NCBI GenBank assembly: GCA_040218735.1
Contig: JAVJQW010000038.1
Coordinates: 238,562-302,561, forward strand
Source: Deltaproteobacteria bacterium
Lineage (GTDB): Bacteria; Myxococcota; Kuafuiibacteriia; Kuafuiibacteriales; Kuafuiibacteriaceae
Length of the DNA stretch: 64,000 nucleotides
Direction of reading: 5' to 3'
Shown here: positions 1 to 8,946 of the stretch, piece after piece
Layout: each line of letters opens with the position of its first letter
How positions within the stretch are numbered: position 1 is the first letter of the stretch
Translations under genes and position numbers: made by a program
Notes under the pieces: model-generated
Databases searched by the model: none
The model's input: only the letters and a program-made list of their open reading frames with translations
What the model was told of the DNA's origin: nothing

Positions 1-171
1 CTGCGCGTCGCGTATGCGTCGCGCGCGCCGTTCGGCGACGAGCCGACGCTCGACATGTTGCAGGGCGGAGCGCGGCTGAGGCTGTTCAGCTGGCTGTTCG
101 CGGAGGCCTACGCGCAGAAGGGTCGCGCGTTCGAAGCCGGCGCGGGGGTGACGGTGGCGTGGCTCCCCTGA
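1..171 (+). CDS. 3' end of a gene entering the window; hypothetical, possibly outer-membrane beta-strand protein
   Basis: Frame 1 is open from base 1 to TGA 169-171 (...LRLFSWLFAEAYAQKGRAFEAGAGVTVAWLP*), with host-like codon usage and alternating hydrophobic residues. Confidence 0.55.
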   Translation: MRVAYASRAPFGDEPTLDMLQGGARLRLFSWLFAEAYAQKGRAFEAGAGVTVAWLP

Positions 172-206
172 CGCGAAGTCGAACGAGATGTGGCAGAGTC
201 GGCGCG

Positions 207-1094
207 ATGCGTTGGCTGCTCCTGCTCTTGGTCGCTCTGTCGTTTGCTTGCGAGGGCAAGCTCGACAAGGAGCGTTTCCGTCGTCGCGCGGAGAAGGCGT
301 ACATCGAGGTCAACTCGGGTTGGACGATCATCAAGCGCGACCTGCACGAGACGATCTTCGTGCGCGGCGATCAGGTCGACACACTCGACGTCCAGACGAT
401 GTTCGAGGACTACGAGAAGAGCGGTCAGAAGGGGTCGGACTATTTCGAGGCCTGGATGGCGGAGCGCAAGGCGGAGGCCGAGGCGCGCCGGCGAACGCTG
501 GAGCAGGCCAAGTCGGAGGTCATCCCGATCATCAAGAGCGAGAAGTGGATTCGGGTGCAGGACCTCGGGGCGATCGGACCGGAGCGCATCCGCGACCAGA
601 TTCGCCCATGGCGGCAGGAGGTCGCGCCCGACGTCTTCGCGGTCCTCGGCATCCCCGAGGAGAAGCTCGGCTATCGCTTCGCCTCGATCGAAGAGGTGAA
701 GGCGTCGAAGGTCTCGGACGACGCGTGGATGAAGATCGGCATGGAGAACGTCCGCCGCATCGTCGGTGAGCCGACCGGCCAAGAGATGCGCATGGAGGAC
801 AAACTGAAGGTCTTCGACCTGAAGAACGTCGACGGCGTCTCCGCGCTGCTGCTGGACCCGCGCTTCCGCGCGAACATGCTCGAGAAGTTCTCGCTGTCAG
901 AGCTGGGCGCGGCGGTGCCGATCCGCAACGTGCTGATCGTGTTCGACCCGGCGGACTTCACCACGATCAAACCCATCCGCGCGCGCGCGCGGCAGCTGTA
1001 TGACTCGCAGAACCACCCGGGGTTCAGGGGGTTGTTGAGGTTCGATAAGAACGTGGTGACGGTGCTGGACTCGGGGGAGGACAAGAAGAAGTAG
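207..1094 (+). CDS. Lipoprotein with DUF1444/YtpQ-like C-terminal region
   Basis: Signal peptide [15 protein letters not shown] (lipobox Cys); motifs SALLLDP and [14 protein letters not shown] resemble DUF1444. Confidence 0.6.
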
Positions 1095-1100
1095 AGGGGA

Positions 1101-1353
1101 TCGGATTCGGACACGGACTCGGATTCGGTTTACGGACACGGATTCGGTTACGGACACGGATTCGGACACGGATTCGGTTACGGACACGGATTCGGTTACG
1201 GACACGGATTCGGACACGGACACGGACACGGATTCGGACACGGACACGGATTCGGACACGGACACGGATTCGGTTGCGGACTCGGATTCGGATTCGGACA
1301 CGGACTCGGATTCGGCTACGGACTCGGATTCGGTTACGGACTCGGATTCGGAA
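1101..1353. repeat. Degenerate hexamer tandem array (TCGGAT/ACGGAC/TCGGAC/ACGGAT/TCGGTT), about 42 units
   Basis: Directly visible between two convergent stop codons; a single 1-nt phase slip near 1131 argues against coding. Confidence 0.95.
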
Positions 1354-1355
1354 TC

Positions 1356-1389
1356 TGCTGGCGGCGCCCCTCGCGGAGCGCCGCCGGCA
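1356..1389 (-). terminator. 15-bp GC-rich hairpin with GCGA tetraloop, downstream of four-helix-bundle gene 1
   Basis: Arms 1356-1370 and 1375-1389; loop reads GCGA on the minus (sense) strand; no U-tract. Confidence 0.6.
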
Positions 1390-1399
1390 TGACCTTCGC

Positions 1400-1753
1400 C
1401 TAATGCGTCAGCCGATACAGCATCGCGTTAATCCTATCGATGAGCTCCATGCTCACCGCGGCGTCCTCCGCCTTCACGTACCCCCAGGCCACCGCCACGC
1501 GCAGCGCGCAACGCACTTCGTCCGCGCTGCCCGCAGCCACCGTGTAGTGATATGTCCTCGACCCGCCCTCCCGTCGACGCCCCTCACCGAGATTCAGCGC
1601 CACCGAGCTCGCGGCGTCCCGAATCTGCTTCGCCAAGCTCGCGTCCTTCTTTCGGATCTTGCTCACCACGTCGACGAGTTCCTCGATGAGCTCCACGCTC
1701 ACCTCCAGAACGATGAACCGACCAGGAGAGGCTGCATTGTTTTTTCTGTTCAT
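1400..1753 (-). CDS. Four helix bundle protein (TIGR02436 / 23S rRNA IVP / bAvd-like), copy 1
   Basis: 117 aa with LAKQIRDAASSVALNLGEG...GSADEV...WGY family motif; GGAGG before the ATG. Confidence 0.9.
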   Translation of the reverse strand: MNRKNNAASPGRFIVLEVSVELIEELVDVVSKIRKKDASLAKQIRDAASSVALNLGEGRRREGGSRTYHYTVAAGSADEVRCALRVAVAWGYVKAEDAAVSMELIDRINAMLYRLTH

Positions 1754-1918
1754 ACCTCCCCCCGGCGCAGGCGGCGTGACGAACGGCCCTCCCTTCGTTC
1801 GGTTACTTTGAGTGGAATCTATTCGGTGGCTCGGTCGTGGTGGGGAATCGGAACCATAGGCCGATCGGCACGACGGTTGCGCTGCACATAAGGGATGAAC
1901 AGAAAAAACAATGCAGCC
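1730..1918. ncRNA. Candidate structured leader or antisense RNA (or ssDNA fold-back) of four-helix-bundle gene 1
   Basis: Perfect 24-bp inverted repeat, 1730-1753 with 1895-1918, enclosing motifs GCAGCGCAAC and GTCACGCCGCCTGCGC (sense strand) shared with the gene 2 leader. Confidence 0.6.
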
Positions 1919-2055
1919 GTCGGCCGGTAGCTCGGTGTGTGCACCTCAACCAAGAAGACGGAGAGAGAGTCCTCCCCTTCAATCCTGCAGAAGAAAGAAC
2001 CTCTCCCGTCAAAGTGCCTTAGGGAGTTGAAACCATCCCCAGTACCACGACCCCC

Positions 2056-2178
2056 GGCCGAGTCCTTGGTTGGGTTCACACCCTTTGAGCAGCGCAACGG
2101 ACGCGCCAAGGCCCGCAGACGGTCCTTGTCACGCCCCCTGCGCTGAAGGGGGGCATGAACCCAACCAAGAACTCGACC
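2056..2178. ncRNA. Candidate structured leader or antisense RNA of four-helix-bundle gene 2
   Basis: 24-bp inverted repeat, 2056-2079 with 2155-2178 (3 transitions, all G.U on the minus strand), enclosing GCAGCGCAAC...GTCACGCCCCCTGCGC. Confidence 0.6.
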
Positions 2179-2502
2179 TACCGCTTCGTGGCGCTCGACG
2201 TGGCGCTGGAGATGATTCGTCAGCTCCGAGAGCCGCTTGCGAAGATTCGAAAGCACGATGCGGATTTGGCGAAGCAGATTCGGAAGGCGGCGGCGTCGGT
2301 GCCGTTGAACGTCGCGGAGGGGAGCCGGCGCGCGGGGGGCGATAGAGCGTATGCGTTCCGAGTTGCGCTCGGGAGCGCCGACGAAGTGCGCGCGGCGTTG
2401 CTGTGCGCGGATGCGTGGGGGTACGCGGAGGTGGACGAGGAGCTACTGGCGACGCTGGATCGCTTGATGGGGCTCATCTGGGGGCTCGGCGGTAGGCGGT
2501 AG
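2155..2502 (+). CDS. Four helix bundle protein (TIGR02436 family), copy 2
   Basis: 115 aa with LAKQIRKAAASVPLNVAEG...GSADEV...WGY; clearly paralogous to copy 1. Confidence 0.9.
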   Translation: MNPTKNSTYRFVALDVALEMIRQLREPLAKIRKHDADLAKQIRKAAASVPLNVAEGSRRAGGDRAYAFRVALGSADEVRAALLCADAWGYAEVDEELLATLDRLMGLIWGLGGRR

Positions 2503-2504
2503 AG

Positions 2505-2546
2505 GAGGAGGCTCGGCGCCGTCGCGAGGCGGCGCCGAGCCTCTTC
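2505..2546 (+). terminator. 19-bp hairpin with GCGA tetraloop, downstream of four-helix-bundle gene 2
   Basis: GAGGAGGCTCGGCGCCGTC-GCGA-GGCGGCGCCGAGCCTCTTC; fully paired with two G.U; no real U-tract. Confidence 0.65.
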
Positions 2547-2555
2547 GATCGCGAC

Positions 2556-2738
2556 TCGGAAACGGAGACGGACTCGGATTCGGACTCGGACTCGGACTCG
2601 GACTCGGATTCGGATTCGGACTCGGATTCGGACTCGGATTCGGATTCGGAATCGGACGCGGAATCGGAATCGGAATCGGAATCGGAATCGGAATCGGAAT
2701 CGGATTCGGTAACGGATTCGGACTTGGTGTCCGAATCC
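2556..2738. repeat. Hexamer tandem array (TCGGAC/TCGGAT/TCGGAA), about 28 units, ending in a snap-back hairpin
   Basis: Directly visible; GGATTCGGAC 2714-2723 pairs with GTCCGAATCC 2729-2738. Confidence 0.95.
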
Positions 2739-3401
2739 CTACGAATCGATCTCCTCGCGCGCCCGCGCATCCAACAACGCGTTCAACCCCCGCGAGATCT
2801 GCTGCGGCTCGTACGTCCCCCGCGGCACGCACCGCCGATACACGTCACCGTTCGTCGCCGCCGTCACGGCGTCGCGGATCTCGTCGAGGGGCTCGACCAC
2901 CAGCGAGTCCAGTCGTCGGGAGAAGAACACGAACACCACGAACGCGATCAGGCCGACGGCGGCGGCGGACCAGGCGCCGGCGAGGCCGAGGCGTTGGGCT
3001 TCGGTGTCCTGTTCGCGCATGGAGCGGCGGTTGATGCCGGAGAGGGCGACGATGGCGTCGACGACGCGGCCGCGGACGGCGCGGTCGTTGGGGCGCTCGA
3101 ACATCGTCTTGGCGTCGCGTTCGATCGCTTCGAGGTAGGGGCGCTCCTCCTCCTCCGTGACGTTGTTCTTGGCGCGCTCGAGCGCGCCGTCGAACTGCGT
3201 ACGCCCCTCCTTGTCGAACGACTCCGTCGCGATCACCGTCAGCATCTCCTCCGCCGCGCGGATGCTGTACTCGTTCTCCGCGAGGATGCGCTCGATCGCC
3301 GGGGACATGCGGGCGAGGAGGGCGATGCCCGTGAAGACGCCCGCGAGCTGGAACACGAAGAGCGTCCCGACCGCCGCGCGGATCTCGCGGCGGACCGTCA
3401 T
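2739..3401 (-). CDS. Membrane protein: TM, four-helix periplasmic sensor, TM, HAMP-like; no kinase domain
   Basis: Start MTVRREIR overlaps the trkA stop (ATGA); ILAENEYSIRAAEEM resembles KinB/4HB-MCP sensors; EPLDEI...GD...E...GLNALLD is HAMP-like. Confidence 0.65.
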   Translation of the reverse strand: MTVRREIRAAVGTLFVFQLAGVFTGIALLARMSPAIERILAENEYSIRAAEEMLTVIATESFDKEGRTQFDGALERAKNNVTEEEERPYLEAIERDAKTMFERPNDRAVRGRVVDAIVALSGINRRSMREQDTEAQRLGLAGAWSAAAVGLIAFVVFVFFSRRLDSLVVEPLDEIRDAVTAATNGDVYRRCVPRGTYEPQQISRGLNALLDARAREEIDS

Positions 3402-4066
3402 GACAGCTTGCTCGCGAGGTCGGTCGCGTCGTTCGCGGCGGTCGCGACGACCAGCACGTCGGACGAGGACAGCGGGGTGTTCGCGTCCGGCAGGACGGCT
3501 TGCACCGCTCCGTCGATCTTGCGGCGCACCGCCACCACCGTCACGCCGAGCTTCGCGGGCAGGTTCGCCTCGCGCAGCGACTTGCCGGCGAGGGAGTCGG
3601 GGACCTGGAGCTCCGTGATGACCAGGTTCCCGCCGAGCGGGATCTGGTCCACGACGTTCGAGTGCGCGAGCCGCGCCGCGAGCCGCTCGCCGAAGGCGCG
3701 CTCCGGGTTCACGACCTCGTGCGCGCCGACGAGGCGGAGGATGCGTTCGTGGATGGTGTCGTTGGCGCGGGCGACGATCCGCTTCGCGCCCATCTGCCGA
3801 AGGAGGGCCGTCACTACGATCGAGCCGTCGCGTGACTCGTCGCCGATCGCCACGACGCACAGGTCGCGCTCCGCGGGCTGCGTGCGGGCGAGGGCGGCCT
3901 CGTCGGCTGCGTCGAAGGCGACGGCCTCCGCGGCCCACGTCGAGGCTTGCTGCACGAGCCGGTCGTCCTGGTCGACGACCATCACCTCGACGCCGTGCTG
4001 CGCGAGCGCCCGTGCGGTCGACATGCCGAACTGGCCGAGACCCAGGATGAGTGCCTGTGTCTTCAC
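3398..4066 (-). CDS. trkA: TrkA/KtrA family K+ uptake regulatory (RCK) subunit
   Basis: GLGQFG Rossmann motif; ILRLVGAHEVVNPERAFG; C-terminal TrkA_C. Confidence 0.92.
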   Translation of the reverse strand: MKTQALILGLGQFGMSTARALAQHGVEVMVVDQDDRLVQQASTWAAEAVAFDAADEAALARTQPAERDLCVVAIGDESRDGSIVVTALLRQMGAKRIVARANDTIHERILRLVGAHEVVNPERAFGERLAARLAHSNVVDQIPLGGNLVITELQVPDSLAGKSLREANLPAKLGVTVVAVRRKIDGAVQAVLPDANTPLSSSDVLVVATAANDATDLASKLS

Positions 4067-4100
4067 GTCGCCTGCTTTGTCGTCCGACGCGCCGGTCAGG

Positions 4101-6047
4101 TCAACCGACGGGGACGTCCTCCTCGGGCAGCCGCCACCCCGAGTCGGGCGCCTGGTCCGCGAGCCAGAGGAACGCGGTGAGCGGTCCGATGCGGCCGACG
4201 AACATACACGCGCCGATGATCACCTTGCCGACCGCGTCGAGTTTGCCGGTGGCGCCCGTCGACAGGCCGACCGTGCCCAACGCGGAGAACGACTCGAACC
4301 ACAGGTCCGCGACCGGGATGTCCTGCGTGAGCGTCAACGCGATCACCGCGCCCACACTGGACGCGACGCCCAGCGACATGACCGCCGCCGCCCGGTAAAC
4401 CGTGATGTGCGCGAGGCGACGGCCGCCGACCTCCGCTTTGGCCACGCCGCGCAACGCCGCGAGCACCGCGAGCGTCAGCACCGCGATGGTCGTGGTCTTG
4501 ATGCCCCCCGCCGTGGAGCCCGGGCTCCCGCCGATCAACATCAACACGATCATGATTGCGTGCGTCGCGGGCGCGAGGTGCGCGAAGTCGACCGAGTTGA
4601 AGCCCGCGGTGCGAAGCGTGACCGACTGGAACCACGCGTTGTGGAGCCGGTCGACGACGTCGAGGTTCAGGAGCGCACCGTTCCATTCGATCGCGCCGAT
4701 CAAGAGCGCCGGGACGACGGTCAGCAGCGCGCTCGTCACGAGGACGAGGCGCGCCTGGAGCGACACCCGCTCGCGTCGCACGAACCGCGGGAGCATCACG
4801 ACCGTGGCCGGCCCAAGGCCGCCGATGATGATCGTGAGTGCGATGACGTGCAGGACGAACGGGTCCGTTTGGTAGGGCACCAGGCTGTCCGACTGCAGCG
4901 CGAAGCCGGCGTTGCAGAACGCCGACACCGCGGTGAACAGCCCGCGCCATATCGCGGTGGGGAGCGCGTCGCCGGCGAAGTAGAACCGCGTGGCCAGCAG
5001 CAGCGCGCTGACCCCCTCCGTGGCGCCGGTGACGGTGAGGATCATCCGGACCGCCCTGCGAATCGAGGGGCCGCCCTCGGTGCCGAGGACACCGGCCGCG
5101 GCGCGCTCGTAGGTGAAGCTCACGCGACGGTCGAGGACGAACAGCACCGCGACCGACAACGCCATGATGCCGAGCCCGCCGACCTGGATCAGCGCGAGGA
5201 TCGTGGCTTGCCCGGCGAAGGTGAAGGCGGTCGGCGTGTCGACGACGATCAATCCCGTCACACACACCGCGCTGATCGCGGTGAACGTCGCGTCCAATCC
5301 GGACAGCACCGGTCCCGCCGACGCGTACGGGCTCGACAGCGCGACGGCGCCGATGACGGCGAGCAACGAGAACGTCGCGACGACGAAGCGGCCGGGGCGG
5401 CGCAGGAGGAAGTCGAGGTCGCGCGCCACCATCGCGGGGGCTGCGACGACGAGCAACGCGACGCCCGCGAGGACGGGGCCCACCGCGACCAACACGCCGA
5501 ACGGGTCGTAGAAGAGGACCGTGATGACACCGCCCGCGACGATCGCGCCCGCGACTCGGTTCATTCCGCCCAGCGCGTTGCGTGCGTAGCGCGCGGCGAA
5601 CACGAGCGCGGCCAGCGACGCGACGATCAGCGACGCGTCGCTGATGCCGTCCGCTGGTCCGCGGAGGCCGCCGAAGTACCCGGCGAAAGCGCAGACGATC
5701 AACGCATCGCGCGCGTCCTTACGTTCCGTCATCGCCGCGAGTGACACGCGGCGGACGAACATGCGCGCGAGGGTGGTGCTCACGACGAGGCCGAGCACGA
5801 GGGCGCGCGCGGGGGCGTCGACGAGGAGCGGTCCGCTGACGAGGACGAACGCGACGGCCGCGACGAGGATCAGCACGCGAGCCAACGCTTCCATGCGTGG
5901 CATCACGAACCCGGCGGTCACCGCGGCGACCGCGCCGGCGCCGAGGACGATCGCGAGCGCAGGATCGACCAGCGAGATGGACGTCTGCGTGGCGGCGCCG
6001 AAGAGCGGCACCGCGCACAGGCCGAGGACGACGAAGGTGCCGCGCAC
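4101..6047 (-). CDS. trkH: TrkH/KtrB family K+ transporter with extra N-terminal TM segments
   Basis: SAVCVTGL, SAFCNAGF, RTAGFN, GGSPGSTAGGIK and SALGTVGLSTG filter motifs. Confidence 0.92.
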   Translation of the reverse strand: MRGTFVVLGLCAVPLFGAATQTSISLVDPALAIVLGAGAVAAVTAGFVMPRMEALARVLILVAAVAFVLVSGPLLVDAPARALVLGLVVSTTLARMFVRRVSLAAMTERKDARDALIVCAFAGYFGGLRGPADGISDASLIVASLAALVFAARYARNALGGMNRVAGAIVAGGVITVLFYDPFGVLVAVGPVLAGVALLVVAAPAMVARDLDFLLRRPGRFVVATFSLLAVIGAVALSSPYASAGPVLSGLDATFTAISAVCVTGLIVVDTPTAFTFAGQATILALIQVGGLGIMALSVAVLFVLDRRVSFTYERAAAGVLGTEGGPSIRRAVRMILTVTGATEGVSALLLATRFYFAGDALPTAIWRGLFTAVSAFCNAGFALQSDSLVPYQTDPFVLHVIALTIIIGGLGPATVVMLPRFVRRERVSLQARLVLVTSALLTVVPALLIGAIEWNGALLNLDVVDRLHNAWFQSVTLRTAGFNSVDFAHLAPATHAIMIVLMLIGGSPGSTAGGIKTTTIAVLTLAVLAALRGVAKAEVGGRRLAHITVYRAAAVMSLGVASSVGAVIALTLTQDIPVADLWFESFSALGTVGLSTGATGKLDAVGKVIIGACMFVGRIGPLTAFLWLADQAPDSGWRLPEEDVPVG

Positions 6048-6753: not shown

Positions 6754-7310
6754 TGGCCCAGGATGTTCACGTCGATGAGTAGCCGGATCGTAGTGCGGAT
6801 GGTGATCGCGACCCCGCGCGGCTCGGCGAGGTTCACGGTGGCGCTCACCGTCATCGCCTCGGCGGTCGCGTAGGGTTTGAGGTTGAAGTCCGTCGGGACC
6901 TCCAGCTCCGTCGAGCTCGTCATCGGGACGGGGAGCGGGAGCTCCGCGAGCATCGCCTCGGGTTGACCCGTCGCGGTGACCTTCATCGTCATGCTCTCGA
7001 CGTAGAGGTTGAGCTCCTCGAGGCGGGCGTCGCCGCTCTGGTGCTCGACCTCCAGGGTCACGGACTTCACGTAGATCGCGTCGACGTCGTCGGGCGAGAT
7101 CCCCTCGTCGGCGAAGGTCCCCGACCGTGACAGGTCGATGTTCGAGAAGCCGGCGCCGAACGACGGCGCGTAGGGCCCGGTGATGCCGGTGTCCGAGCGG
7201 GGGATCGAGGCTTCCTCGACGATCACCTCTTCGAACTCGTCCAGCCCGCCGCACGCCGCGAGCGTGAGCGCCGCGCTGGCCAGTAGGTGTCTTCGAAGCA
7301 CGGCCCGCAT
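6750..7310 (-). CDS. Hypothetical lipoprotein
   Basis: MRAVLRRHLLASAALTLAAC lipobox; beta-rich mature part. Confidence 0.75.
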   Translation of the reverse strand: MRAVLRRHLLASAALTLAACGGLDEFEEVIVEEASIPRSDTGITGPYAPSFGAGFSNIDLSRSGTFADEGISPDDVDAIYVKSVTLEVEHQSGDARLEELNLYVESMTMKVTATGQPEAMLAELPLPVPMTSSTELEVPTDFNLKPYATAEAMTVSATVNLAEPRGVAITIRTTIRLLIDVNILGQ

Positions 7311-7359
7311 CCTACCCGGGAGTGTTGGCCCCGTGCTACATGATCGCGCTGAACGCCCG

Positions 7360-8946
7360 ATGATCTTCCACTGTCCCGCCTGCTCGGCCGGGCACACGGT
7401 GCCGGTCTCGATGATCCCGAACGGCGGGATGGACATGACCTGCCGCCGCTGCTCCGCGTCGTTCCTGGTCGACGTCGACGAGCCCGCGGTCGTCGAGGAG
7501 GAGGATCCGACGGTCGCCGCCAAGGCCGAAGCGACCGCGATCGGGGTCGCGAACCCCTACGACGAGCTCGTCCCCGACGCCCAGCTGATCCGCCCCGGCG
7601 GCGAGCTGCTCGACCTGGACGACTCCTCCGACGACACCGAGGCCCTCGTCGCGGCCGAAGACCGCGCCCGCTCCGCCGACAAACCGACGATCCCGATCGA
7701 CCACAAGCGTGTTCCGCTGGGCCCGGACGAGGTGGGCGTCGACCCGGAGATCGACAACACCCAGCGCTTCGACGTCGAGGAGGAGGACGTTCCGACCTAC
7801 GAGCCGGACGTCATCGGGATGCAGGACATCGATGGCGGCGGCCTCGGCACCTCACGTCCCCCGAGCCGCCGCGCGCCGACCCCGGAGCCGCGCAAGCTGG
7901 GCGGCAGCAAACCGCCGCCCTCGTCGTCGACGACCCGGCCTCCGTTCGACCGTGACGATCTCTACGCCAAGGTCGCCTCCGGCCGCTACGAAAAGCCCGA
8001 AGCCCCACCGGAGCCGGCCTCCAACGTCCCGCGCGAACGCGCTTGGAACGAACCCTCGTCGCTGATCTTCACCGGCGCCGGATCCGACTCCGCGCTGCGA
8101 CGCTTCGCCGAGTGGCTCAACCGCGCCCCGTTGCCGCTGAAGGTCGCGTTGATCGTGTTCCCGGTGACGCTGGGCCTGACGCTGGTGCTCACGGCGGGGC
8201 CGAAGCGGGGGGAGCCGGTGGACGTGGGGGCCGTGGGTTCAGTGGATTCTACTCAAACGAGCCCCAGCGAGGTTCCCGGTCCGGGTCCCGGTCCGGGTCC
8301 CGAAGCGGGCACGGGTTCGGGATCGGGCAAGGGCTCGGGCTCGGACTCGGACACGGGATCGGATTCGGACTCGGATTCGGACACGGGATCGGATTCGGGA
8401 TCGGATTCGGACTCGGACTCCGGGTCGGATTCGGACACCGACGCGGACGCCGTCGCTCGTTCGCGTTCGGGACCCGGACCGGAACCGGGACCCGGACCGG
8501 GTGCCCTGCGCTTCCGCGACCCCACGGCGGCTGAGGGCCAAGCCTACATCCAAGCCCCCAACACCCGCCTCCGCGCCACCGCGGCGCCGCGCGGTCGCAC
8601 CGTCGCGCGGCTCGGCGCCGGACAGCTGGTCCAGCGCTACGATCGGCGCGGCGAGTTTGCGTTGGTGTTGGTCGCGCCGGACGGTCCGGTCGGGTTCGTC
8701 GACGAGGGGCGCCTCGGGGCGCGAAAGCCGGTCGTGGCGCTCGCCGAGGACATCGCGTTCGAGGGGTGCTCTTCGACCGGGAGCACGCTGGACGCATGCC
8801 TGTTCGCGGCGAAGCAGAAGGAGGGCGCGTGCGTCGACGGCTGTGGTGCCGACGGTGCGCGCTGTCGCGAAGCCTGTCAGATCGCGTTCGAGCGCTGCAC
8901 GCGCCAGTGCCAGCCGCCGAAGCGTCGGCGGCGTCGGCGGCGTTGA
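7360..8946 (+). CDS. MJ0042-type zinc-ribbon membrane protein with GP/SD linker, SH3-like and Cys-rich C-terminal domains
   Basis: MIFHCPAC...MTCRRC zinc ribbon; acidic/Pro linker; one TM; TRLRATA...VARL...GPVGFV SH3b-like; 8-Cys tail. Confidence 0.8.
   Translation: MIFHCPACSAGHTVPVSMIPNGGMDMTCRRCSASFLVDVDEPAVVEEEDPTVAAKAEATAIGVANPYDELVPDAQLIRPGGELLDLDDSSDDTEALVAAEDRARSADKPTIPIDHKRVPLGPDEVGVDPEIDNTQRFDVEEEDVPTYEPDVIGMQDIDGGGLGTSRPPSRRAPTPEPRKLGGSKPPPSSSTTRPPFDRDDLYAKVASGRYEKPEAPPEPASNVPRERAWNEPSSLIFTGAGSDSALRRFAEWLNRAPLPLKVALIVFPVTLGLTLVLTAGPKRGEPVDVGAVGSVDSTQTSPSEVPGPGPGPGPEAGTGSGSGKGSGSDSDTGSDSDSDSDTGSDSGSDSDSDSGSDSDTDADAVARSRSGPGPEPGPGPGALRFRDPTAAEGQAYIQAPNTRLRATAAPRGRTVARLGAGQLVQRYDRRGEFALVLVAPDGPVGFVDEGRLGARKPVVALAEDIAFEGCSSTGSTLDACLFAAKQKEGACVDGCGADGARCREACQIAFERCTRQCQPPKRRRRRRR
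8275..8501. repeat. In-frame hexamer array (TCGGAY/ACGGGA) bounded by 30-bp inverted repeats
   Basis: 8275-8304 is the reverse complement of 8466-8501 apart from one 6-nt insertion. Confidence 0.85.

Follow-up and report, generated by a model that had tools for sequence, protein, structure and literature searches.

A probable repeat-bounded accessory cassette of paired four-helix-bundle genes between protein-coding genes

Organization of the locus

The DNA analysed here (the window) is a stretch of 64,000 nucleotides from contig C66 of the 11.6-Mb genome G000. Near its beginning lies a cassette of about 1.65 kb (positions 1095-2738), which consists of two back-to-back genes of the PF05635/TIGR02436 family, a spacer between them, a hairpin after each gene, and flanking arrays of hexamer repeats, and which as a whole represents an insertion or deletion when compared with G001, a genome of the same genus. 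An earlier note on this DNA assigned four parts to each gene, namely a leader, an open reading frame, a hairpin capped by GCGA and a hexamer array, and all of them were recovered in place. Its label of HAMP gene for one of the flanking genes was not borne out, as this gene has no Pfam match and only below-threshold NCBIfam matches.

ORF1 (1400-1753, minus strand) and ORF2 (2155-2502, plus strand) encode four-helix-bundle proteins of 117 and 115 amino acids, respectively. The proteins are diverged paralogues with 50% identity, and both exceed the profile cut-offs of PF05635 (56.9 bits for ORF1 and 47.4 bits for ORF2; cut-off, 33.8) and TIGR02436 (56.3 and 51.5 bits; cut-off, 24). To our knowledge, PF05635 is a large family with no known function outside the diversity-generating retroelements (DGRs). 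Its members include the DGR accessory protein Avd and XCC0516, a homopentameric four-helix-bundle protein of solved structure (PDB 2GSC), and the resemblance of the window proteins to both is one of family membership at the sequence level; the profile of their clade matches 2GSC over residues 5-111 (E-value 1.5e-10, a sequence match). Members of the family have also been noted in cas loci (PMC3936711). Across the three copies of the cassette described below, the ORF1 proteins are 98-99% identical (94-95% in DNA, dN/dS 0.015-0.039) and the ORF2 proteins 96.5% identical (dN/dS 0.06-0.08), with dS of 0.20-0.26 between gene copies. Both proteins are thus under strong purifying selection (dN/dS 0.015-0.08). 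By analogy with XCC0516 and Avd, they could tentatively be regarded as oligomeric nucleic-acid binders, which may act on the repeats or the RNA of their own cassette.

The spacer between the genes is poorer in GC (0.545-0.58) than the neighbouring DNA (0.65-0.73), as had been described before. Its core between the two fold-backs (1919-2055; GC 0.545-0.565) presumably holds divergent promoters; a sigma-70 consensus scan of the spacer gave no match. Over its 401 nt, the spacer shows 91-96% identity among the copies, though the dS of the genes is as high as given above. Each gene is preceded by a long fold-back leader, and RNA folding agreed with the earlier description of both: the ORF1 leader RNA (1700-1930, minus strand) has a predicted energy of -98.2 kcal/mol (z -4.95) and that of ORF2 (2040-2200, plus strand) -83.3 kcal/mol (z -6.37), with none of 200 shuffled sequences equally stable in either case. 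The ORF1 fold-back (1719-1929, minus strand) contains a perfect 24-bp stem, formed by 1730-1753 with 1895-1918, that covers the AUG and codons 2-8, and the Shine-Dalgarno (SD) sequence lies at the base of a 141-nt structured loop. The ORF2 leader (2041-2196, plus strand), found both as a self-inverted match and by folding, is one long imperfect hairpin (palindrome 2056-2178), the 3' arm of which contains the SD sequence, the AUG and the first codons. In both genes, the SD sequence and the AUG are therefore predicted to be buried by pairing with an upstream inverted copy. Support from covariation among the copies is thin: none of the 78 predicted pairs of the ORF1 leader shows a compensatory change and five are broken in one copy, and among the 54 predicted pairs of the ORF2 leader there are two compensatory double changes and one broken pair.

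The hairpins reported to follow the stop codons by a few bases are likewise present. The ORF1 hairpin (1352-1394, minus strand; -33.5 kcal/mol, z -3.73) has an 11-bp GC-rich core stem at about 1360-1385 with a GCGA cap in the sense RNA, and is kept in the copies on C13 (GCGA) and C43 (GAGA). The ORF2 hairpin (2505-2546, plus strand; -44.3 kcal/mol, z -5.74) has a 19-bp stem with a GCGA cap, and is kept in the copy on C70 and imperfect in that on C33. GNRA loops cap all six hairpins of the three copies (five GCGA and one GAGA; z -2.4 to -5.7), and long GCGA-capped hairpins occur at 11 further sites of the genome besides the cassettes. In the stem of the ORF1 hairpin, a U.G pair becomes a mismatch on the opposite strand, and the wobble pairs of the 3' hairpins are accordingly predicted to function in the sense RNA only. 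A scan for the intrinsic-terminator consensus called neither hairpin, both of which lack a following T-run; high-GC bacteria may terminate transcription without a U-run. The two subterminal hairpins were also considered as a REP/REPIN pair and rejected as such, being neither copies of each other nor dispersed in the genome.

Pairing of an upstream segment with the ribosome-binding region has known precedents: fold-back inhibition of transposase translation in IS10 and IS50, and the RNase III-dependent unmasking of the ribosome-binding site of adhE in Escherichia coli. As in those systems, the SD sequence and the AUG are predicted to pair with a segment upstream, so that translation would be limited to transcripts which lack it or have been processed; unlike there, the stems of the window are much longer (24 perfect base pairs in one, 54 predicted pairs in the other). 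The leaders would probably keep translation off unless a transcript starts inside them or is processed, for instance by RNase III, and the 3' hairpins would end or stabilize the mRNAs.

Arrays of 170-250 bp of NCGGAN repeats had been described outside both genes, and Tandem Repeats Finder (TRF) placed them at 1098-1352 and 2556-2722. With the alignment of the copies, the left array is delimited as (TCGGAN)n at 1098-1352 (42.5 units) and the right one as (TCGGAN)n at 2556-2738 (27.8 units at 2556-2722). The two were said to be arranged in mirror image; in fact, both read (TCGGAN)n on the plus strand, and their alignment scores 81 in direct and 21 in inverted orientation. Owing to this shared polarity, the arrays cannot pair within one transcript. 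A GGGGATCGG-type tip opens the left array and is common to the left ends of all three copies. The last 25 nt or so of the right array (2712-2736) form a small inverted tip, which recurs in the C33 copy but not in that on C70, and only some 12 nt at the very end of this array are flipped; the two extreme ends of the cassette are therefore inverted to each other over about 12 nt in two of the three copies. The left array varies in length: 72 nt, or 12 units (1174 to 1247), are skipped in a 13-kb contig from run X2, which comes from a strain in another metagenome that has the cassette at the same site.

The genome contains only 41 (NCGGAN)n arrays in total, and all six ends of the three copies have one, which is beyond chance. 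The arrays are not exclusive to cassettes. By a sorting into coding and non-coding that is approximate, since arrays are open in many frames, most of the 41 lie in open frames encoding Ser/Asp/Glu/Gly linkers. Solo non-coding arrays adjoin stop codons at four other loci, and one of these carries a tip of the same type as the left array of the window. As a separate observation, the G001 contig beside the solo-array site on C8 ends within a gene.

Copies of the cassette and the empty site

Eight PF05635 matches were found in the genome, six of which belong to the module (two on C66 and one each on C13, C43, C33 and C70). They make up three cassette copies with mutually unrelated flanks, in which similarity ends inside the arrays; copies 2 and 3 are reconstructed from the ends of contigs, and C13 and C43, which carry the ORF1 halves, may be paired either way with C33 and C70, which carry the ORF2 halves. 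The ORF1 and ORF2 halves overlap by exactly 96 nt, and their starts are identical over 141 nt. This would be expected if a stretch of 186 nt that is identical between copies 2 and 3 broke an assembly at k = 141. We also considered an inverton, as the contig breaks fall on the border of the 24-bp inverted repeat, and dismissed it: the 186-nt identity and the 141-nt contig overlaps account for them. The core of the cassette matches only these three cassettes within the genome, and in 60 relatives its DNA gave matches of at most 51 nt.

The earlier note proposed to look for an empty site with the flanking genes directly adjacent, and such a site exists. On contig C308 of G001, the genes orthologous to the two neighbours of the cassette (83% and 73% amino acid identity) converge with stop codons 4 nt apart, and blastn homology to G001 stops at window position 1094 and restarts at 2779. 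This comparison covers one congener, G001, which is the only genome of the same genus and is 75% complete; within that 75%, it has neither PF05635 matches nor (CGGANN)8 arrays. At the other copies, homology to G001 ends 12 nt outside the array on C33 and is followed by unrelated DNA, the C13 flank is rearranged in G001, and the flank genes of C70 and C43 have no match there. A comparison of the cassette junctions with the empty site in G001 shows no target-site duplication. The ORF copies are 93-95% identical to each other, as compared with 81-82% for flanking DNA between G000 and G001, and the cassette was likely gained and copied within the present lineage; gene conversion could raise the apparent similarity among the copies, and deletion in G001, instead of gain here, is a possible cause of the empty site.

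Contigs of four runs (X1, X2, X4 and X6), in which rare forms would be invisible, contained neither a joint across 1095-2738 nor a circle junction. One joint in X1 that appeared to go back from 2600 to 1348 proved to be the array-to-hairpin junction of the C43 copy itself.

Occurrence of the same design in other genomes

Two further families of the phylum have multi-copy modules of the same head-to-head design, with five copies of a 1.6-kb pair at 94-99% identity in G124 and at least four pairs in G064. The flanks of these pairs are direct, as in the window (scores 31-53 direct versus 8-19 inverted), and the start or the SD sequence of each gene has an inverted copy in the spacer. By scanning, relatives of the clade were found at five loci in genome contigs and one locus in metagenome contigs. 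A start-occluding stem of 22 bp, unrelated in sequence to the window leaders, is predicted at a homologue in G010, and among the five homologue loci tested for such a leader it is absent from three (L036, L030 and L032).

The suspected link of these genes to microsatellites holds well beyond the window. Over 29 loci from 29 genomes, an array with a period of 5-9 nt lies within 150 nt of the gene in 17, on both sides in nine, and there are 3.23 arrays per kb close to the gene versus 0.09 per kb beyond 400 nt. The association of the gene family with short-period arrays is therefore real and general. Among the single-gene loci, 14 of 24 have an inverted flank score of at least 18 that is above the direct score. 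G003 carries 15 or more cassettes, each about 455 bp long, that are 99% identical and lie between inverted (CCTGGA)n arrays; beyond these arrays comes a terminal inverted repeat of 29 nt. The locus in the window combines divergent paralogues, inverted repeats that cover the starts, direct flanking repeats and several copies, and it differs from this single-gene form, in which one gene is bracketed by mutually inverted arrays, in having two genes and direct arrays.

Repeat units and proteins were compared at six of nine loci (L063, L069 and L076 were left out). Proteins with 66% and 72% identity from different GTDB families share a repeat unit, and two proteins of one genome that are 43% identical have different units. 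Judging from these sequences, the repeat unit is inherited together with the protein.

Nature of the cassette and possible routes of spread

The positions 1095-2738 most probably represent a repeat-bounded accessory cassette of the intervening sequence (IVS) type family that was gained and copied. The earlier suggestion of a mobile or selfish module stands insofar as the block is accessory, repeated and variably present (three copies, unrelated flanks, an empty site); its further suggestion that each gene forms a module of its own does not, as the recurring unit is the whole pair and not a single gene with its own array. In agreement with that note, the module contains no reverse transcriptase (RT), integrase or transposase. 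The three copies together with the absence at the site in the sister genome make it look like a transposase-free accessory element and not like ordinary genes. PADLOC gave no match for the cassette, and a known defence system is therefore not indicated. On the best reading, it is a non-autonomous cassette of the same broad kind as the 23S rRNA IVSs that carry ORFs, placed between ordinary genes and built as a twin.

The announcement of a new system should accordingly be tempered, as the ORF-bearing 23S rRNA IVS is the closest published thing. Such IVSs occur in Leptospira and, with the S23p ORF, in Coxiella burnetii (PMC4990558; Ralph and McClelland, 1993, cited there and in PMC3936711). In C. 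burnetii, two to three strain-variable copies of the tandem repeat GACAGAT directly precede an ORF that is reported as decaying (PMC4990558). In the literature searched, this is the only mention of short tandem repeats beside such a gene (PMC4990558). Common to both are a PF05635 protein, long RNA stems at the start of ORF translation, and the character of a small, sporadic, lower-GC "selfish" insert without a mobility gene. The window cassette differs in lying outside rRNA, in having two genes in place of one, in lacking a stem of paired flanks around the ORFs, and in flanking arrays that are direct and 170-250 nt long; moreover, its proteins are under strong purifying selection, in contrast to the decay described for the Coxiella ORF (PMC4990558).

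It is very unlikely that the cassette is a true rRNA-type IVS or a derivative, in which a stem formed by the flanks would be cut by RNase III to excise an ORF-bearing RNA from the host transcript. The shared protein family, the tandem heptamers before the ORF and the RNase III cleavage reported for the Coxiella IVS (PMC4990558), and single-gene relatives whose mostly inverted arrays could form such a stem speak for it. In the window, however, the arrays are direct and unable to pair within one transcript, and the long stems enclose the leaders instead of the ORFs. An Rfam scan of positions 1-5000 found no rRNA, only three sub-threshold matches to miRNA models, all inside the arrays, and the cassette does not occupy helix 25 or helix 45 of 23S rRNA, its flanks being protein genes. 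Least credible of all is a remnant or satellite of a DGR, with both proteins serving as Avd accessory factors for an RT acting in trans. PF05635 includes Avd-like proteins, is the commonest Pfam family beside DGR RTs (PMC10053308), and the genome has five RT genes; yet these RVT_1 matches (C28, C20, C8, C9 and C69) are away from all copies, with no RT within 5 kb of the window start or near the contig ends of the copies. The window genes also differ from avd in having no adjacent RT, template or variable repeats: the long repeats found are arrays and fold-backs only, no template/variable pair was seen among them, and each of the three copies forms a complete module that has no RT.

The two remaining explanations are both unlikely. 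If the genes were ordinary paralogues, an old two-gene locus would have been copied twice by segmental duplication, hexamers would have grown independently nearby, and nothing would be mobile; this would fit purifying selection as on normal genes, the location of most of the 41 arrays away from cassettes, some of them solo beside stop codons, and the failure to find either a mobility enzyme or a target-site duplication. It is at odds with arrays at all six cassette ends at which the similarity of the copies stops, with the empty site in the sister genome, with the gene-plus-array design that recurs with other units in other genomes, where copy number reaches at least 15 at 99% identity, and with the co-inheritance of repeat unit and protein. 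Were the cassette a MITE-like passenger, a transposase encoded elsewhere would recognize the inverted tips or the subterminal hairpins, and the arrays would be by-products. The inverted extreme ends of about 12 nt in two of three copies, the GC-rich hairpins just inside both arrays and the 29-nt terminal inverted repeat of the G003 cassettes agree with such a passenger; but no target-site duplication was seen, the hairpins differ from each other and are not dispersed, the core matches three cassettes only, and the match of the left tip is trivial because the tips consist of array units.

For a non-autonomous accessory cassette, the route of movement can be proposed only tentatively. The most likely one, and a possible one at best, requires no enzyme of its own and consists of recombination or slippage between the direct arrays of the cassette and like arrays elsewhere. 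The segment between the direct arrays would loop out as a circle, leaving a solo array behind, and the circle would re-enter at another array of the same hexamer unit. As the empty site of G001 is without an array, this route needs an earlier step that places an array there. A more doubtful alternative is that the short inverted tips are the target of some enzyme supplied in trans.

A further proposal, which we regard as improbable, is a matched protein-repeat system, in which each clade of proteins would recognize its own unit, as DNA or as an RNA duplex, and thereby drive the copying, recombination or expansion of arrays. Protein-repeat binding might then spread the cassette without a transposase and seed microsatellites throughout the genome, coding linkers included, as with the (NCGGAN)n unit here. 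In twins, the two divergent mRNAs might pair in trans through their complementary 3' array tails, which would tie together the fate or the co-assembly of both paralogues.

Under the preferred reading of a non-autonomous accessory cassette, the locus presents a cassette that is self-contained and under selection, is bordered by tandem repeats and has conserved controls at the RNA level. The locus also allows a clean comparison of a filled and an empty site between two genomes of one genus, defines the twin form with direct arrays, and offers experimental handles in the leader, the hairpin, the array and the two proteins. Should unit and protein indeed match in function, this family would connect a protein with the way in which short tandem repeat arrays arise in bacteria, a long-standing question.

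As a separate observation among the genomes compared, a repeat unit of about 335 bp in G006 resembles a gene fragment.

Layout and predicted RNA structures of the cassette

The block at 1095-2738 (1,644 nt) contains two head-to-head genes, ORF1 (1400-1753, minus strand) and ORF2 (2155-2502, plus strand), which are 50% identical and score above the curated cut-offs of both PF05635 and TIGR02436. It lies between a lipoprotein-like gene (207-1094, plus strand) with a visible lipobox and no Pfam or NCBIfam family, and a gene for a 220-aa protein (2739-3401, minus strand), for which the HAMP label of the earlier note was dropped: Pfam gives no match and NCBIfam only sub-threshold ones. Further right, a TrkA_N/TrkA_C gene (3398-4066) and a 648-aa membrane-protein ORF (4101-6047), both on the minus strand, are probably an ordinary potassium-uptake pair unrelated to the cassette. 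A clade profile of ORF1 and ORF2 matched the solved pentameric XCC0516 (2GSC; E 1.5e-10), and by family both proteins are predicted to be oligomeric four-helix bundles, kin of Avd, which binds nucleic acids and reverse transcriptase (RT). PF05635 is equated with Avd in the available text of PMC10053308 and mentioned in a figure legend of PMC10910872.

The four-part layout proposed in the earlier note (genes, leaders, hairpins and arrays) was confirmed in every component, with the polarity of the arrays corrected. The arrays had been described as mirror images; the left array (TRF; 1098-1352, 42.5 hexamers) and the right array (TRF; 2556-2722, 27.8 hexamers) both read (TCGGAN)n on the plus strand and are direct, with flank alignment scores of 81 direct versus 21 inverted. 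Reversed orientation is confined to the final ~25 nt of the right array (2712-2736), so that the cassette has short inverted tips.

The predicted leader RNA of ORF1 (1700-1930, minus strand; -98.2 kcal/mol, z -4.95, a stability matched by 0 of 200 shuffles) has a perfect 24-bp stem in which 1895-1918 pairs with 1730-1753, the start codon plus codons 2-8. That of ORF2 (2040-2200, plus strand; -83.3 kcal/mol, z -6.37) is a single long hairpin with the Shine-Dalgarno sequence (SD) and AUG in its 3' arm. Across the three cassette copies of this genome, the 54 predicted pairs of the ORF2 leader include two compensatory double changes and one broken pair, and the 78 pairs of the ORF1 leader include no compensatory change and five pairs broken in one copy; over three such close sequences, this conservation argues weakly for the fold-backs. 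The same design in unrelated sequences argues for them better: a homologue in genome G010 (loci L031 and L034) has a predicted 22-bp stem covering codons 2-8 (z -5.6 and -7.0), and in the twin modules (head-to-head paralogue pairs) of G124 and G064 the start or SD of each gene recurs in inverted form in the spacer. A start-occluding leader is absent at three further homologue loci (L036, L030 and L032). L031 and L034 are one single-gene cassette in two copies with identical leader and ORF; the stop codon of L031 is lost, and its frame continues for ~65 further codons.

The 3' hairpins carry GNRA loops in six of six cases across the three copies (five GCGA, one GAGA; z -2.4 to -5.7). Each of the two window hairpins contains one U.G pair that is a mismatch on the opposite strand, an indication that the hairpins act in the sense RNA. 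No T-run follows the cassette hairpins, and a terminator scan calls neither. Long GCGA-capped hairpins are not cassette-specific: the genome has 635 long tetraloop hairpins, 15 of them with GCGA, and four of these 15 belong to the cassettes.

Divergent promoters are presumed in the low-GC centre (1919-2055), and both mRNAs would then start with a fold-back concealing SD and AUG, so that translation would require either transcription beginning within the fold-back or RNA processing. The ORF1 and ORF2 mRNAs would be terminated or protected by their GNRA hairpins.

Copies of the cassette and the empty site

Eight PF05635 matches were found in the genome of the window (G000), two of them in the window and four at contig starts. 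Contigs C13 and C43 start with ORF1, its hairpin and array, and contigs C33 and C70 with the spacer, ORF2, its hairpin and array. The overlap between any ORF1 contig and any ORF2 contig is exactly 96 nt, and the first 141 nt are identical within each pair (C13/C43; C33/C70), as expected in a k=141 assembly if two further copies share an identical stretch of 186 nt; these ends are therefore read as two further complete cassettes, the pairing of the halves being ambiguous. With four contigs starting inside the cassette, the assembly understates copy number at first sight. The two other PF05635 genes, L001 (C39:37223-37516) and L002 (C9:276456-276764), lack hexamer arrays; the sequence upstream of L002 resembles an inverted copy of the gene's 3' end (inverted flank score 48 versus 8.5 direct).

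Similarity between copies stops inside the arrays, the DNA beyond is unrelated, and the arrays diverge far more than the cassette core. The ORF1 proteins are 98-99% and the ORF2 proteins 96.5% identical between copies (dS 0.20-0.26, dN/dS 0.015-0.08), and the 401-nt spacer is 91-96% identical, above the neutral-site expectation. Low dN/dS and spacer identity therefore mark both genes and the spacer as functional in every copy.

An empty site, of the kind the earlier note proposed seeking in close genomes, was found in G001, the sole other genome of the genus compared. On its contig C308, the two flanking genes have orthologues (83% and 73% amino acid identity), which converge with 4 nt between their stop codons and no cassette; in blastn, homology stops at window position 1094 and restarts at 2779. 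The G001 assembly, 75% complete in ~1,480 contigs, contains neither a PF05635 match nor eight (CGGANN) units in a row. Homology of the C33 copy to G001 ends 12 nt past the array, followed by unrelated DNA; the remaining flanks yielded no usable comparison. Between G000 and G001 the flanking DNA is 81-82% identical, and among the cassette copies the ORFs are 93-95% identical, figures consistent with gain and copying since the divergence of the two lineages. Deletion in G001 combined with gene conversion is a possible alternative to gain, the comparison being a single one. The evidence for gain and copying in this lineage is good, and the cassette is read as an accessory element. The earlier note had interpreted each unit of the block as a small selfish, mobile or protein-RNA module tied to microsatellites; copy number and the empty site support this interpretation in part, for gain and copying.

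Parts of the stretch occur in 22 public runs, none of them recorded as RNA; contigs from four of these, each from a different study, were compared with the window. Long flank contigs of run X1 enter both arrays with zero differences. A 13-kb contig of run X2 comprises the left flank, array and left hairpin and lacks 12 array units (72 nt), so the cassette occupies the same position in a second population, with variable array length. No contig in these four runs joins across the cassette.

Solo arrays, known systems and proposed routes of movement

The genome has 41 such hexamer arrays, six of which flank the three cassettes. Solo non-coding arrays lie directly 3' of stop codons at no fewer than four loci (at least C8:143787-143898, C42:399345-399462, C66:150652-150793 and C61:134943-135313) and could be attachment sites or footprints. 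The C8 array terminates in a GGGGATCGG-type tip, as at the left ends of cassettes, and the C61 locus consists of two mutually inverted arrays. By an approximate classification, most remaining arrays lie in frames open through the array and its 240-nt flanks, encoding Ser/Asp/Glu/Gly-rich linkers. One of these, the third in the window (8306-8448), encodes a Gly/Ser/Asp linker in a 588-aa ORF (7180-8946, plus strand); the 64% identical orthologue of that ORF on G001 contig C114 has a non-repetitive linker of similar length. Since runs of eight (NCGGAN)-type units are also absent from G001, G003, G006 and G011, the hexamer seems to have spread through coding linkers in G000 only.

A diversity-generating retroelement was rejected: neither the cassette nor the surroundings of any copy contain an RT, and there is no template/variable repeat pair; the five RVT_1 matches in the genome are on C28, C20, C8, C9 and C69. 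An rRNA intervening sequence (IVS) was likewise rejected, with no rRNA at the cassette and flanks that cannot pair. PADLOC gave no model matches, and Rfam no family at threshold, with three weak miRNA-model matches within arrays. As far as its available text goes, PMC4990558 describes a Coxiella IVS with tandem heptamers of variable number before the S23p ORF, excised by RNase III, and restates the old idea that an IVS is a former mobile element; in the open-access main texts searched, it was the only source with short tandem repeats beside such a gene. The available part of PMC3936711 lists 18 genes of the PF05635/TIGR02436 family in cas loci.

As the borders of the cassette are direct arrays of a unit also found solo beside stop codons, we infer that recombination or slippage between arrays would be the simplest enzyme-free route: loop-out would leave a solo array, followed by re-entry at another array. 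Alternatively, an enzyme acting on the inverted tips may move the cassette; two copies, that of the window and that of C33, have the tips, and the C70 copy lacks them.

Repeat arrays across the family

Cassette DNA was not found in 60 relatives. Among the 20 genomes of the GTDB class, a protein homologue (E<=1e-8) occurs in three of the 19 others, and PF05635 genes, frequently multi-copy, in 81 of 301 sampled genomes of the phylum; the closest loci are in MAGs labelled Myxococcales, Polyangiaceae and Deltaproteobacteria. Arrays were surveyed at 29 loci, the best match in each of 29 genomes, unselected for repeats. At 17 of them an array of period 5-9 nt lies within 150 nt of the domain match (on both sides in nine), with a density of 3.23/kb there versus 0.09/kb beyond 400 nt; three of the five distant arrays adjoin a partner gene.

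The repeat unit follows the protein (six of nine loci were usable for this comparison). CCTGGA is common to G003 and G022, whose proteins are 66% identical and whose GTDB families differ, and a GTTGAC/GTGGAC-type unit to G196 and G266 (72% identical), and the units of two G003 proteins with 43% identity differ. Arrays beside the G010 homologues contain the GACTCGGA core, as in the window arrays.

Flanks of single genes are mostly inverted. Head-to-head pairs, in the window and in three copies each from G124 and G064, have direct flanks, and in G197, where the pairs are tail-to-tail, the flanks are inverted; in G124 a 1.6-kb twin module is present five times (94-99% identity). The window cassette is a twin, direct-hexamer-array version of the IVS-type four-helix-bundle cassette, and this form is new. 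If transcription continued into the arrays, the 3' tails of its two mRNAs would be mutually complementary, a bimolecular counterpart of the stem formed from the inverted arrays of single-gene cassettes.

At least 15 cassettes of ~455 bp with 99% identity are present in G003, which belongs to the same family as G000; their order is terminal inverted repeat (29 nt), (CCTGGA)n, ORF and inverted array. The CCTGGA hexamer is absent from G000, G001, G010 and G006. In G003, two different cassettes have one and the same 1.4-kb element (L088, 3192-4594; L090, 3154-4556) directly at their CTAG ends, in opposite orientations; it is probably an insertion sequence.
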